A DNA stretch of 25,935 nt from a virus (IMGVR_UViG_2636415858_000002:1-25935), one strand, 5' to 3'; shown: positions 1,427 to 24,060, counted from the stretch's first letter. Numbers and translations: made by a program. Notes: generated from the sequence alone by a model not told the origin.

Positions 1427-1778
1427 GCAAGCACCTTAAAATCACCATCATACACTAAATCAGTAAGTTGGCAGCATTACCCCATTGCTGGCATAAATTC
1501 AGTTTCGAATATTCAGTTAATTAAAGTTCGTGTGCCATCTTGTCTTTTTCGGCACAAGCTGCACCGCAATATTTTCGTTTCTTTCTGGCAATCATGTTTC
1601 CATGCATATAAATAAGCTCGCCAGTAAAAGCTTTTTCAGGTAAAAACTGTTTATTGCAGAGATGGTAATCACATTGTATTAAATCCGGGTCACCTTTTTG
1701 CTGGAGAATTTTTCTGATTCTCCACAGCCATTTTTTAATCCCGGTATGACTGATGGTCTGCCTGAGGTGGTTCTTTTT

Positions 1779-2597
1779 TTAAGCAGCCATCTGATGATAT
1801 TTTTCCCTGAAGGCTGCCGGGGAGATATTCCCCAGACGAGAGTGACGACGCTGACGATTGTAGAAAATCTCAATGTATTCCCGTATTACTGAGATGGCTT
1901 CATCCCGGTTATTAAAATGATAGTGGCTCAGGCTCTCATTTTTCAGCGTTCCCCAGAAGCTTTCCATCGGAGCGTTGTCGTAACAGTGACCTTTACGCGA
2001 CATTGATGTTTTCAGACCAGACTGCTCCTGTATGACCCGGTAATCGTATGCGCAGTACTGTGAACCTCGATCAGAGTGGTGGATTAGCCCGGCAGGTGGG
2101 CGCTGGCTCCTGAGCGCCATAAACAGGGCTTTACCTGTCAGCTCTTTTGTCATGCGCTCTCCCATGGCGTAGCCGACAATTTCGCACGTATAAACATCTT
2201 TGATGCCAGCGAGGTACAACCATCCCTCCTGTGTGGCAACATACGTCAGGTCCGCCACCCAGACCTGATTTGGTGCTGTAGGAGCGAACGTCTGGTTCAG
2301 CAGATTTGGCGCAACTGGCAGATTGTGGTTCGGGTTCGTAGTCGCTCTGAACTTGCGTTTCTGCTTACAGCGTAGCCTTAGCTCCTTACGAAGACGTGCC
2401 AGTCGGTCACGACCAACGATGATGCCATTCTCTGCCAGCTCCGTCTGGAGCCGCCGGGTTCCATATGTTTCGCGAGTGCGGATATGTGCCACCTTAATCT
2501 CCAGTTTTAGCCGCTCATCACTTTGTTTTCTGTCTGAGGGTTCATGCTGTACCCAGTTGTAATAACCGCTCCTGGATACACCAAATACCTGACACAT
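1779..2597 (-). CDS. IS600 OrfB transposase catalytic frame (DDE)
   Basis: 272-aa ORF MCQVFGVSRSGYYNW...; one substitution (SHYHF vs SHYRF) relative to the other three copies. Confidence 0.85.
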   Translation of the reverse strand: MCQVFGVSRSGYYNWVQHEPSDRKQSDERLKLEIKVAHIRTRETYGTRRLQTELAENGIIVGRDRLARLRKELRLRCKQKRKFRATTNPNHNLPVAPNLLNQTFAPTAPNQVWVADLTYVATQEGWLYLAGIKDVYTCEIVGYAMGERMTKELTGKALFMALRSQRPPAGLIHHSDRGSQYCAYDYRVIQEQSGLKTSMSRKGHCYDNAPMESFWGTLKNESLSHYHFNNRDEAISVIREYIEIFYNRQRRHSRLGNISPAAFREKYHQMAA

Positions 2598-2646
2598 CGC
2601 TTCAATGGGAAATTGTTGTCGCCATTGTTCGATTAACGCGTATTTT

Positions 2647-2934
2647 TCAGCGACTCCTGTGCAAAATACGCTGTTGCTTTTTTAATATATCTCGCTCAAG
2701 GCGAGCTTCATTTAACGCCTTACGCAGTTGCAGAATTTCAGATTCCAGTTCAGCCACCGTGCGGGAACCAGGAGTACCGAGCCCTTTTCTGGCGGCGGTA
2801 ACCCATTGTCCTAAAGTGCCTTCAGGAAGGGATAATCGGGAAGCGCCTTCACTGATCGAAAGTTGATTTTCAAGAACCGTTCTGACAGCTTCGGCTTTGA
2901 ACTCTTTAGAGTAACGTTGGTTTTTTCTGCTCAT
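2647..2934 (-). CDS. IS600 OrfA, 95-aa variant (ends KKQQRILHRSR)
   Basis: ORF-track protein; differs from the 100-aa form only after the poly-A run. Confidence 0.8.
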   Translation of the reverse strand: MSRKNQRYSKEFKAEAVRTVLENQLSISEGASRLSLPEGTLGQWVTAARKGLGTPGSRTVAELESEILQLRKALNEARLERDILKKQQRILHRSR

Positions 2935-2998
2935 TATTAGCTCCTTCTGATGCCATTCTATTTCAGGAAGGAGTGTCCGTTAAACTCAGGCTACCTCA

Positions 2999-20666: not shown

Positions 20667-20976
20667 TTTAATTTATCGCGAGAAAAACTATGTCTGTAGT
20701 GATATCAGGTGCGCTGACTGATGGCGCAGGTATCCCCATGTCCGGATACCATATTATTCTGAAATCCCGGGTAAACACCCCGGAAGTGGTGATGCACACT
20801 GTTGCTGATGTGATGACAGGAAACGATGGTGAATACTGTTTCCATGCGCGGACTGGAAAATATGGTGTGTATCTGAAACCGGGCTGGCACAACGAGTACA
20901 ACGTTGGCGACATTGCTGTATATGAGGACTCAATGAGGTGTACTGGCAATAGCGGACACTACCATTTGTTCTTTTT

Positions 20977-21795
20977 TTAAGCAGCCATCTGATGATATTT
21001 TTCCCTGAAGGCTGCCGGGGAGATATTCCCCAGACGAGAGTGACGACGCTGACGATTGTAGAAAATCTCAATGTATTCCCGTATTACTGAGATGGCTTCA
21101 TCCCGGTTATTAAAACGATAGTGGCTCAGGCTCTCATTTTTCAGCGTTCCCCAGAAGCTTTCCATCGGAGCGTTGTCGTAACAGTGACCTTTACGCGACA
21201 TTGATGTTTTCAGACCAGACTGCTCCTGTATGACCCGGTAATCGTATGCGCAGTACTGTGAACCTCGATCAGAGTGGTGGATTAGCCCGGCAGGTGGGCG
21301 CTGGCTCCTGAGCGCCATAAACAGGGCTTTACCTGTCAGCTCTTTTGTCATGCGCTCTCCCATGGCGTAGCCGACAATTTCGCACGTATAAACATCTTTG
21401 ATGCCAGCGAGGTACAACCATCCCTCCTGTGTGGCAACATACGTCAGGTCCGCCACCCAGACCTGATTTGGTGCTGTAGGAGCGAACGTCTGGTTCAGCA
21501 GATTTGGCGCAACTGGCAGATTGTGGTTCGGGTTCGTAGTCGCTCTGAACTTGCGTTTCTGCTTACAGCGTAGCCTTAGCTCCTTACGAAGACGTGCCAG
21601 TCGGTCACGACCAACGATGATGCCATTCTCTGCCAGCTCCGTCTGGAGCCGCCGGGTTCCATATGTTTCGCGAGTGCGGATATGTGCCACCTTAATCTCC
21701 AGTTTTAGCCGCTCATCACTTTGTTTTCTGTCTGAGGGTTCATGCTGTACCCAGTTGTAATAACCGCTCCTGGATACACCAAATACCTGACACAT
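20977..21795 (-). CDS. IS600 OrfB
   Basis: 272-aa frame identical to copies 2 and 3. Confidence 0.85.
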   Translation of the reverse strand: MCQVFGVSRSGYYNWVQHEPSDRKQSDERLKLEIKVAHIRTRETYGTRRLQTELAENGIIVGRDRLARLRKELRLRCKQKRKFRATTNPNHNLPVAPNLLNQTFAPTAPNQVWVADLTYVATQEGWLYLAGIKDVYTCEIVGYAMGERMTKELTGKALFMALRSQRPPAGLIHHSDRGSQYCAYDYRVIQEQSGLKTSMSRKGHCYDNAPMESFWGTLKNESLSHYRFNNRDEAISVIREYIEIFYNRQRRHSRLGNISPAAFREKYHQMAA

Positions 21796-21844
21796 CGCTT
21801 CAATGGGAAATTGTTGTCGCCATTGTTCGATTAACGCGTATTTT

Positions 21845-22132
21845 TCAGCGACTCCTGTGCAAAATACGCTGTTGCTTTTTTAATATATCTCGCTCAAGGC
21901 GAGCTTCATTTAACGCCTTACGCAGTTGCAGAATTTCAGATTCCAGTTCAGCCACCGTGCGGGAACCAGGAGTACCGAGCCCTTTTCTGGCGGCGGTAAC
22001 CCATTGTCCTAAAGTGCCTTCAGGAAGGGATAATCGGGAAGCGCCTTCACTGATCGAAAGTTGATTTTCAAGAACCGTTCTGACAGCTTCGGCTTTGAAC
22101 TCTTTAGAGTAACGTTGGTTTTTTCTGCTCAT
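21845..22132 (-). CDS. IS600 OrfA, 95-aa variant
   Basis: Same C-terminal change (KKQQRILHRSR) as copy 1. Confidence 0.8.
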   Translation of the reverse strand: MSRKNQRYSKEFKAEAVRTVLENQLSISEGASRLSLPEGTLGQWVTAARKGLGTPGSRTVAELESEILQLRKALNEARLERDILKKQQRILHRSR

Positions 22133-24060
22133 TATTAGCTCCTTCTGATGCCATTCTATTTCAGGAAGGAGTGTCCGTTAAACTCAGGCTACCTCACAAA
22201 GCCCGGCACGCTGAATGACTTTCTGATTGCTCCTGATGAGGGCGACCTGAAACCGGATGTCGTCAAACGCTTTGAGGAAATGGTGGTGCAGGCGCAGCAG
22301 AGCGCCGGGGCCGCAGCCGGAAACGCACAGCAGACGGCGCAGGATGTGGCGGCAGCCGCAACGGCCCGTGATGATGCACAACGTTTTGCGGAGAATGCCA
22401 GACAGGATGCAACCGTCACAGCTGAGGACAGAAAGGCCACTGCGGAAGATGTGACAAGCACAGGAGCAAATGCAGCCGCAGCCGGACAGAGCGCACAGGA
22501 TGCCGCAGGTTATGCCCGCGCAGCAGAACAGGCCAAAAATGACATTGATGCTGCGCTGACCGGCACTCTGAAAATGGCTAACCATCTGTCAGAAATCGCA
22601 GCAGCAGGCGAAAAGGCACAACAGAAGTCCCGGGATAATCTGGGGCTGAAAAGTGCGGCCACGATGGAAGCACAGAGCGACATTTACGACCGGACAAAAG
22701 GCCGTCTGGCGATACCCGGCGCATTCGGCTTTGGGTGTGCTTTTCTGCCTGAAGATGTTATCCGTTTTGACACTAAGAGTGATTTCCTGGCCTGGGTAAG
22801 GAATGCGCTGCCAGGTGAATATTCCGTTGCTGGCCCCTACGACATCATCATACCCGACACACGGTTTGAAGGGGTGCTCAGCATCCGGTGGACTGATGCA
22901 CGCCCTGAGACAACAGAACCGCGGTACAGAGCCAAATCCCTTACTTTTTACGGCATTAACGGCCCCATTTATCACACCCGCTACTGCTACTGGCCCATAT
23001 CCAGACTGACTGGCTGGGTGAAAATAAATATAACCACAGAAGATATTATTTACAGAATCGTGGCGAGCTCTGTCCGCAACAGATGGGGAGACCCTGACAT
23101 TGGCGGGCTGATTATTGCTGCGTACCAGGGAGAAGCTGACGGTGATAAAGTCATCAGACTTGTCAGGGGGCAGTCATACAGAGGCTCACGACTGGGACCG
23201 GTGGGGATTTCAGTGCCCAGTACTCCCACCGGAACGTATATAGCATCCCCACAATTTTTCATTACGGGATGTTCAGAGCATTCATTACCGGGGTCATATT
23301 GCGCCCTGTCCGGGGGCCGGATGCACATGTCTCTGGCGCAATGCCCGGGCTTTTTATTCGCACATCGTGAGGAATGCACCGTGGAAATTAAAAAAATCAT
23401 TAATCCCCGTTATACCGAAAGTGGCGCAGTAGACTGTGACGTTTTTTTTGACGACAGGGACCAGGCAGTCCCCTACACAGCCACCGCTGATGATGTCGCT
23501 CCGACGGGTCAGCAAATCTGGCAGGAACTGCAAAGCGGCAAATGGGGTGAGATAGCCCCATTCACTGTGACACCAGAAATGCTGGAAGCGGCCAGAGAGG
23601 CCAGACGTCAGGAAATTGAAGCATGGCGCGCAGAACAGGAGGCGAAGCCGTTCACGTTTGAATGGAACGGTCGTATCTGGAATGCTGGTCCCGACTCACT
23701 GGGCCGCCTGTCCCCGGTAGTCATGCTGGCAAAATCTGTCACAGCACAAACACATATGGCGTGGAGCGATGCCGATAATCAGCAGGTGAAACTGTCGATG
23801 CCGGAACTGGAAGAACTGGCGGCAGCAATGGTGCAGGCGCAGGTCGATCGCAACGATGAGATTTATCGCCGTCAGCGTGAAATGAAAGAGGAGCTGAGCG
23901 GTCTGGATGATTTGGCTTCAATTCGGGCGTTTGACGTTGAGTAATGAATAAGCCGCAACTGGCGGAATCACAGAAGACCGCTTTGCTTACCGAAGCGGAG
24001 TCTGTCATCCGGCCGCGGGGGCGTGCTGTCAGGCTGAACAGGGAAACGGATGAATCCGGG

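Follow-up and report, generated by a model that had tools for sequence, protein, structure and literature searches.

Six- and seven-adenine alleles of the frameshift run in four IS600 copies of a Shigella boydii prophage

IS600 was assigned by Sharma et al. (2014) to cluster A_AAA_AAA_1, with an OrfA of 100 aa and an OrfAB of 385 aa (PMC4066793, supplementary data). A conserved hairpin is listed for the IS600 cluster (PMC4066793), and frameshifting in this cluster is stated in the same work to be proven, with reference to "unpublished data" (PMC4066793). In the IS1447 group, transposase is obtained by +1 transcriptional slippage on a run of nine As (PMC6211511). Expansion of IS1, IS2, IS4, IS600 and IS911 drives genome decay in Shigella (PMC7373316). 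The window, meaning the whole stretch of 25,935 nucleotides analyzed here (IMGVR_UViG_2636415858_000002:1-25935), is part of Shigella boydii CP011511.1 and contains four copies of IS600, which lie in an IS-riddled ipaH prophage.

Four copies of IS600 in one prophage

Over positions 1-1264, copy 3 showed 99.6-99.9% identity to elements of many E. coli records that PGAP names IS600, and the conceptual OrfAB of 385 aa scored 412.5 bits against NF033516 (NCBIfam IS3 family transposase; cut-off 160 bits), with profile positions 1-369 of 369 covered. Pfam matches of the products were HTH_Tnp_1, HTH_21 and rve, the element ends are TG...CA, and the target duplications are 3 bp long. The four copies are the known IS3-family element IS600 (IS3 group, Shigella/E. 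coli), a known element with no new mechanism. Because the copies are near-identical and differ at a single defined homopolymer, chance plays no part in the comparison. The sequence-only reading that preceded this analysis had counted seven As in the frameshift run of two copies (A7) and six in that of the other two (A6), and this was borne out, the coordinates of the 100-aa and 95-aa orfA genes agreeing with a mechanical list of open reading frames. The features are as follows.

1763..2998, minus strand: IS600 copy 1, A6 allele, flanked by GAT (left) and GGC (right) without matching duplication
2647..2934, minus strand: orfA of copy 1, 95 aa, ending KKQQRILHRSR
2678..2683, minus strand: A6 run of copy 1, T6 on the plus strand
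1779..2597, minus strand: orfB of copy 1, 272 aa with the Arg-to-His change, +1 frame with respect to orfA
7535..8798, minus strand: IS600 copy 2, canonical, 1264 bp, flanked by GGC (left) and CTA (right)
8432..8734, minus strand: orfA of copy 2, 100 aa
7578..8396, minus strand: orfB of copy 2, 272 aa, in the -1 frame
8477..8483, minus strand: A7 slippery run of copy 2
10078..11341, plus strand: IS600 copy 3, canonical, 1264 bp, flanked by CTA (left) and TGA (right)
10142..10444, plus strand: orfA of copy 3, 100 aa
10480..11298, plus strand: orfB of copy 3
10393..10399, plus strand: A_AAA_AAA, heptamer for -1 frameshifting in copy 3, leading to the conceptual OrfAB of 385 aa
10406..10439, plus strand: predicted stimulatory hairpin of copy 3, 9-bp stem GCGUAUUUU/AAAAUACGC, 6 nt past the heptamer
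20934..22196, minus strand: IS600 copy 4, 1263 bp, differing from copies 2 and 3 by the missing A alone
21845..22132, minus strand: orfA of copy 4, 95 aa
20977..21795, minus strand: orfB of copy 4
21876..21881, minus strand: A6 run of copy 4, with the in-phase reading A_AAA_AAG
20931..20933, no strand assigned: first target-site duplication of copy 4, CAA on the plus strand, TTG in the orientation of the IS
22197..22199, no strand assigned: second target-site duplication of copy 4, CAA on the plus strand

Copies 2 and 3 are 100% identical to each other. Copy 1 has, besides its A6 run, a G>A change at IS position 1082, which causes the Arg-to-His substitution in OrfB, and has lost 27 bp within the right inverted repeat (IS positions 1231-1257); it is therefore defective in at least two ways. 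The same copy in CP026731 measures 1263 bp and has an intact right end. That copies 1 to 3 are without matching flanks is due to later recombination; the DNA lying between copies 2 and 3 has the opposite orientation in CP026731, in which a perfect CTA/CTA duplication is restored.

Copy 4 was described in the earlier reading as a clean insertion with duplication in spite of its A6 run. Its duplication is indeed of 3 bp (TTG/TTG, as compared with TTC, CGC, GAC, ATA, GTA, GAG and CCA at other IS600 loci), and excising copy 4 together with one duplicate makes a phage tail-fibre-like open reading frame of 662 aa whole again. The apparent paradox dissolved, since Sb227 and three further assemblies carry this insertion with A7, so that A6 need not have been the state at insertion. 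When an empty site for copy 4 was sought, an exact 20-mer of its flank was absent from 9 of 10 related prophage loci, the tenth being the assembly of the window itself. The tail-fibre genes of those nine loci may be diverged paralogues, which makes the absence of the 20-mer uninformative, and the restored open reading frame was relied on in its place.

Reading frames and predicted products

In the A7 copies, base a1 of the run occupies the third position of TTA and orfB lies in the -1 frame, whereas in the A6 copies the 0 frame ends ...KKQQRILHRSR* after 95 aa and orfB lies in the +1 frame. A slippery heptamer followed by orfB in the -1 frame is accordingly present in copies 2 and 3 and absent from copies 1 and 4. 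The assignment of the heptamer at 10393..10399 as the -1 site matches both the CDS that PGAP annotates as "programmed frameshift" on an A7 IS600 copy of 1264 bp and the cluster described by Sharma et al. (2014), and the products computed for the A7 copies agree with the published sizes of 100 and 385 aa (PMC4066793). It was also considered whether the reference element might carry A6; the reference state of IS600 is A7. The 9-bp stem was recovered as the minimum-energy fold in all four copies, and the hairpin satisfies the rules for spacing, first pair and length given in PMC4066793. However, the fold z-score of the 86-nt region was -0.87, which is not significant, and folding energy alone lends the hairpin no support; the predicted hairpin is backed by its position and by the literature.

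From these frames, copies 2 and 3 would make OrfA (100 aa) by normal translation and, through a -1 ribosomal shift on A_AAA_AAA aided by the downstream hairpin, the OrfAB transposase of 385 aa. For the A6 copies, the conceptual products are 95 aa in the 0 frame, the wild-type OrfA of 100 aa after a -1 shift, 384 aa after a +1 shift and 385 aa after a -2 shift. The standard product of copies 1 and 4 should thus be the 95-aa OrfA with an altered tail, and a -1 shift on the very shift-prone in-phase A_AAA_AAG would lead to exactly the wild-type OrfA; OrfAB would require a +1 or -2 shift, or mRNA with A5 or A8. The claim that a -1 shift cannot yield OrfAB from the A6 copies agrees with this frame computation, and the loss of transposase in these copies is to be taken as a prediction.

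The A6 copies are probably non-autonomous forms of IS600 that make OrfA only, with a run length that has been reshuffled by slippage, gene conversion and recombination between IS copies. The A6 state probably arose by replication slippage in the homopolymer and by exchange among IS600 copies through gene conversion or IS-IS recombination. Copy 4, with both ends present, could be mobilized by the transposase of A7 copies, while copy 1 would be hampered by its damaged right end besides its A6 run. The sequences directly show the run states, the frames, the conceptual products, their recurrence across assemblies and the A6/A7 polymorphism at one and the same site, whereas the direction from A7 to A6, the respective shares of slippage and gene conversion, and any regulatory effect of OrfA made from A6 copies are inferred. 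Two observations can be read against this explanation. PGAP calls the A6 copies "programmed frameshift" and not pseudogenes, a call that comes from homology-based modelling and is no evidence of function, and the occurrence of A6 at many sites with intact duplications, together with a shared 126T>C change, would also fit A6 elements that are still mobile.

Run length between strains and competing explanations

The exact 95-aa OrfA variant has been deposited from several loci of the Sanger-sequenced S. boydii Sb227 and was found on 122 contigs. The site of copy 1 is A6 in CP011511, CP026731 and Sb227, and that of copy 4 is A6 in CP011511, CP182558, JWSL02, CP162080 and CP162048 but A7 in Sb227, CP099865, CP055124 and CP160646. 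For the counts of run states in E. coli genome and Shigella plasmid records given further below, only ranked BLAST rows with 100% coverage were used; counting by identity bands of short BLAST queries was dropped, as the band of at least 99% mixes in partial matches. At the sites of copies 1 and 4, A6 was seen in 9 of 18 assemblies, the corresponding figure for three further sites being 1 of 24 (Fisher p = 0.0008), and the frameshift run was shortened in 12 of 56 cases, whereas a control A7 run at the orfB stop of the same loci was shortened in none of 55, although the 12/56 count comes from loci related by descent and Fisher tests overstate their independence. A6 is a genuine inherited allele. 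Single-assembly A6 calls, such as those of JWSL02 at the CTA site and of CP162080 at the copy 1 site, could be errors.

Two further insertions, on the pheA side and on the fdhE side, likewise differ between strains, one strain having A6 and another A7. As the run length differs between strains at one and the same insertion, its state is not fixed at insertion, and a change from A7 to A6 after insertion would most simply explain the copy 4 site. Signs of exchange between copies come from the inversion between copies 2 and 3 described above and from SNPs 337T>C and 1241G>A, which are present at two different sites within single genomes and absent from the orthologous copies of other strains. Two adjacent A6 copies of one genome have the private SNP 126T>C in common.

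A separate, non-autonomous sub-lineage of A6 elements that spreads mainly by transposition in trans, and not by change in place, would account for the presence of A6 at no fewer than eight distinct sites with 3-bp duplications and for the fact that most A6 copies otherwise match the consensus. However, no SNP linked to A6 was found among the compared copies, A6 occurs on at least three sequence backgrounds (L008 and L011 types), the three orthologous sites tested are polymorphic for A6 and A7, and the transposase of IS911 prefers action in cis by about 200-fold (PMC5009743). This account is unlikely and was set aside as the main explanation, since a linked SNP is lacking and other strains have A7 at these very sites.

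It is also unlikely that either of two further proposals holds, namely that the run acts as a heritable and reversible switch between A7 (transposase) and A6 (OrfA only, damping transposition), or that transposase continues to be produced from A6 copies through a +1 or -2 shift or through RNA polymerase slippage. Considered singly, continued autonomy of the A6 copies, with OrfAB arising from a +1 or -2 ribosomal shift or from RNA polymerase slippage to A5 or A8, is very improbable. In its favor, the orfB frame opens within the run, and the +1 and -2 products would be OrfAB proteins of 384 and 385 aa; orfB and the ends of A6 copies are intact, with duplications at many sites; the 126T>C change is common to two neighbouring A6 copies; and IS3-family elements that employ transcriptional slippage do exist, as in IS1447 (PMC6211511). 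In IS1447, however, which is the one IS3-family slippage element to have been tested, no frameshift product was detected with six As or fewer, seven being the number required (PMC6211511), and a run of at least seven As for RNA polymerase slippage is lacking in copies 1 and 4, which makes the rescue by transcriptional slippage that the sequence-only reading had allowed for doubtful. Features that stimulate +1 shifting, for instance a stop codon or a rare codon in the A site, are absent, and as the same insertions are A7 in other strains, movement of A6 elements is unnecessary to account for their positions.

The other proposal, a selected on/off switch with A6 copies kept for making OrfA without transposase and thereby damping IS600 in IS-laden Shigella, has just as slim a chance. 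Flanking SNPs divide the strains into two clades and both run states occur in each clade at the copy 4 site, a pattern that gene conversion, IS recombination or single-assembly errors could also yield. In favor of a switch are, too, the excess of shortening, which affects the frameshift run but spares the control run, the higher frequency of A6 among Shigella plasmid records (28/262) than among E. coli genome records (6/~1333), the restoration of wild-type OrfA by a -1 shift in A6 copies, and the rarity of A8, which is expected to fuse OrfAB constitutively. Yet this pattern needs no selection, as it would also follow from one founder mutation propagated through gene conversion and recombination, the sample is small with members related by descent, and Shigella genomes gather pseudogenes under relaxed selection (PMC7373316).

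That all four copies are truly A7 and A6 was called through sequencing or assembly errors in the homopolymer is scarcely credible: under-calling of homopolymers is frequent in 454, PacBio and Nanopore assemblies and A6 in complete E. coli genomes is at noise level (6 records versus 3 with A8), but A6 of copy 1 is reproduced in Sanger-sequenced Sb227 and in CP026731, A6 of copy 4 in four further assemblies, and both the site-specificity of A6 and the unshortened second A7 run fit error poorly.

Significance and comparison with known systems

RefSeq tags A6 copies as transposases with a "programmed frameshift", yet no OrfAB can come from them by the known -1 mechanism, and for this reason tallies of "active" IS600 in Shigella may be too high. 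The fraction of non-autonomous IS600 copies and the between-strain state at the same site bear on models of IS activity.

The A6 and A7 copies resemble phase-variable (contingency) genes in showing a heritable change of homopolymer length in a coding region, with both states among close relatives. In contrast to contingency genes, the IS600 run is short (6-7 nt) and exchange between repeats can mimic switching. With the IS1447 group, IS600 shares the dependence of transposase on the length of an A run beside a hairpin, and orfB of A6 IS600, like that of IS1447, lies outside the -1 frame. IS1447 requires seven or more As and carries its hairpin upstream of the run, whereas A6 IS600 is below this threshold and has its hairpin downstream, where a ribosomal stimulator would be placed. 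Compared with IS600 as described, copies 2 and 3 are alike in length, identity, products, heptamer, hairpin, ends and duplications, while in copies 1 and 4 the heptamer is short of one A and orfB is in the +1 frame, and copy 1 has also lost 27 bp from its right inverted repeat. IS911, IS3 and IS150 have the same layout, with OrfA as regulator and OrfAB as transposase, and employ A_AAA_AAG, the very motif that the A6 allele of IS600 reads in phase. A -1 shift on this motif leads into orfB in IS911, IS3 and IS150, whereas in the A6 allele of IS600 it would lead back into the tail of OrfA.

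IS600 copies and their surroundings

Repeat finding and four-way alignment located four copies of the insertion sequence IS600 (IS3 family) in the window, with either seven (A7) or six (A6) adenines in the frameshift run.

IS600 copies in the window, from repeat finding and alignment
1763-2998, minus strand: copy 1, A6
7535-8798, minus strand: copy 2, 1264 bp, A7
10078-11341, plus strand: copy 3, 1264 bp, A7
20934-22196, minus strand: copy 4, 1263 bp, A6

Copies 2 and 3 are 100% identical over their 1264 bp, and the sole difference between them and copy 4 is one A less in the run TTAAAAAAAG. 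The same A is missing from copy 1, in which a G>A substitution at IS position 1082 also replaces Arg by His in OrfB and 27 bp (IS positions 1231-1257) have been deleted within the right inverted repeat (window 1763-1790), so that most of this repeat is lost and its last 7 bp alone remain. Judged from its position, the deletion should immobilise copy 1. The CP026731 orthologue of copy 1 has an intact right end without the deletion, which is therefore recent and specific to the window strain. The ORF coordinates proposed in a sequence-only reading agreed exactly with a mechanical ORF list.

Copy 3 matches, over 1-1264 and with 99.6-99.9% identity, elements named 'IS3-like element IS600 family transposase' by PGAP in many E. 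coli records, and conceptual OrfAB, the transposase made by frameshift fusion of OrfA and OrfB, reaches 412 bits against the NCBIfam model for IS3 transposases (cut-off 160). Positions 16121-24666 are 100% identical to Shigella boydii CP011511.1. The prophage around the copies is decayed; it retains a lytic transglycosylase-domain (tape-measure-like) gene, tail genes, genes for Rha and DicA-like regulators and an ipaH effector gene, and also holds IS1, IS2, IS3-family and IS66-family elements. The window is very IS-dense, with listed features within 1-339, 714-1482, 4071-4839, 5570-5908, 14842-18374 and 24124-25935, among them two inverted IS1 copies, duplicated IS3-family fragments and an IS66-family element (ORFs of 139, 116 and 530 aa) abutting an IS2-like fragment; the ipaH gene at the right edge scores 563 bits against the IpaH model.

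Frameshift signal and decoding of the A6 run

An IS600 copy from E. coli whose CDS PGAP annotates as 'programmed frameshift' is A7. IS600 was placed in cluster A_AAA_AAA_1 by Sharma et al. (2014), with a 0-frame product of 100 aa, a frameshift product of 385 aa and a conserved hairpin, and on unpublished data the cluster was called a case of proven -1 frameshifting with stem-loop stimulation (PMC4066793). Translation of an A7 copy gave exactly 100 and 385 aa, and in the minimum-energy fold a 9-bp stem (10406-10414 with 10431-10439) starts 6 nt past the heptamer. The PGAP copy, the published cluster and the translations thus agree that A7 with a -1 site is the expected state of IS600, as the sequence-only reading had held, and the A6 reference that it had named as a threat to its prediction of inactive A6 copies was therefore not found.

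Frame-by-frame translation of the A6 copies returned what had been claimed for them, namely a 95-aa OrfA (0 frame ending KKQQRILHRSR*), orfB in the +1 frame and no OrfAB by a -1 shift. A TAA immediately before the run means that the +1 frame is open only from within it. Read in phase, the heptamer is A_AAA_AAG, a -1 motif that ranks with the most efficient in E. coli (PMC4066793), and by conceptual translation a -1 shift on it yields exactly the wild-type 100-aa OrfA. OrfAB would be obtained by a +1 shift (384 aa, one Lys less) or a -2 shift (385 aa), a further route being A5 or A8 mRNA. PGAP treats A6 copies in NZ_CP007136.1, NZ_CP065613.1 and two loci of CP011511.1 as encoding an intact transposase by 'programmed frameshift', with a joined CDS of 1156 nt, and the RefSeq proteins of A6 copies (e.g., WP_085948182.1, WP_134802464.1) are conceptual products that the known -1 mechanism cannot yield. 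On A6 copies this label is homology modelling and no evidence of function.

Authenticity of A6 and its variation between strains

A second A7 run in each element served as internal control for homopolymer error.

Second A7 run (TTAAAAAAAG), overlapping the orfB stop codon, constant in length in all four copies
1773-1782: in copy 1
7572-7581: in copy 2
11295-11304: in copy 3
20971-20980: in copy 4

Among loci not selected by OrfA state, the control run was shortened in 0/55, versus A6 in 12/56 for the frameshift run; among OrfA-selected loci, one copy (locus L011) had A6 in the control run. CP011511, CP026731 and Sb227 all have A6 in the copy 1 insertion (left flank ...AAGAGAAGAT), and for the copy 4 insertion (TTG/TTG) A6 recurs in CP011511, CP182558, JWSL02, CP162080 and CP162048. 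A6 clusters at these two sites: it was found there in 9 of 18 assemblies, whereas three further sites in this region gave 1 of 24 (Fisher p = 0.0008; since the copies in the count have common ancestry, p-values are indicative only). The exact 95-aa protein occurs on 122 contigs, and several loci of the Sanger-era S. boydii Sb227 genome are among its deposited sources. Sequencing error, about which the sequence-only reading had worried, would be expected equally at both runs and at all sites; A6 is repeated between assemblies and site-specific while the control run is stable, so that error is highly improbable and several independent results indicate that the A6 state is real.

The copy 4 insertion is present at the same site and with the same duplication in nine assemblies, being A7 in Sb227, CP099865, CP055124 and CP160646. 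Two further insertions also differ between strains: the one adjoining IS4 upstream of pheA has A6 in Sb227 but A7 in CP026807, and the one downstream of fdhE has A6 in AMJX01, again with A7 in CP026807. It had appeared puzzling that copy 4, though predicted inactive, forms a clean insertion; the insertion and its duplication stand, but the puzzle does not, since the element is A7 in four assemblies and therefore need not have entered as A6. Five flanking SNPs divide the assemblies into two groups, Sb227 falling with the window, and both groups hold A6 and A7 at the copy 4 site, which requires more than one change or exchange between copies.

Records with at least one copy of the given run length
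E. coli complete genomes (about 1333 records with a full-length match): A6 in 6, A8 in 3
Plasmids (262 records with a full-length match): A6 in 28, mostly Shigella pINV; A8 in 3

One A6 site is common to two assemblies of S. flexneri 3a pINV. Two E. coli O145:H28 genomes, one of which was checked, have A6 at near-identical coordinates, suggesting one common site.

Exchange between copies and comparison with related elements

Exchange between copies can be seen directly in these loci. The 1279-bp (~1.3-kb) Rha-gene segment between the inverted copies 2 and 3 (7535-11341) has the opposite orientation to that in CP026731 and most other assemblies, where one copy has a perfect CTA/CTA duplication; this arrangement points to homologous recombination between IS600 copies in the window strain. 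The flanks of copy 1 (GAT, GGC), copy 2 (GGC, CTA) and copy 3 (CTA, TGA) form a chain that appears to record earlier IS-IS recombination. The outer flanks of the block from copy 1 to copy 2 (1760-1762 and 8799-8801) are both GCC on the plus strand, and together with the chain they suggest that segments were inverted in the past or that a composite unit transposed.

Within a single genome, each of the SNPs 337T>C and 1241G>A is found in two copies at separate sites, yet orthologous copies elsewhere lack them, as would be expected for gene conversion between IS copies. The genomes with such pairs are CP099865.1 (at the CTA site of the copies 2/3 region and the TTG site of copy 4) and CP026807.1. 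In the locus from PTES01000002.1, two inverted A6 copies (3802-5064 and 5600-6862), 535 bp apart around a GGDEF gene fragment, have the private SNP 126T>C in common and may reflect either local A6 transposition or mutual conversion. In the Sb227 locus (CP000036.1; 3815-4299, 6903-7683), the copy 1 insertion is split at IS position ~485 by other IS elements and its right-hand part is inverted and 2.6 kb off, indicating more rearrangement at this locus.

We consider it quite probable that copies 2 and 3 represent canonical IS600, that copies 1 and 4 are non-autonomous and could by the known route make OrfA-type proteins but not transposase, and that the A6 state is inherited and would change in place by slippage and exchange between copies. 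A separately transposing A6 sub-lineage is unlikely, as one insertion can be A6 or A7 in different strains. Still less likely is that A6 is a selected switch or has a 'repressor-copy' role.

IS600 and its frameshift signal are known already, as is the fact that degenerate copies exist, and GenBank has contained the 95-aa ORF since the Sb227 deposition. The same-site A6/A7 polymorphism, of which no discussion was found in the literature searched, the -1 shift restoring OrfA in A6 copies and the RefSeq mislabelling of these copies appear undocumented; these three points are useful and of modest weight.

Self-rescue of A6 copies by an alternative shift or RNA polymerase slippage is about as doubtful as a selected role. 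IS1447, like IS600 a member of the IS3 family, uses transcriptional slippage and gave no detectable product with six or fewer As (PMC6211511), and by this analogy A6 self-rescue is considered unlikely. Mobilisation of copy 4 in trans by the A7 copies is possible, and its efficiency would be expected to be low because the transposase of IS911, whose own cis preference is applied here to IS600 by analogy, prefers action in cis about 200-fold (PMC5009743).
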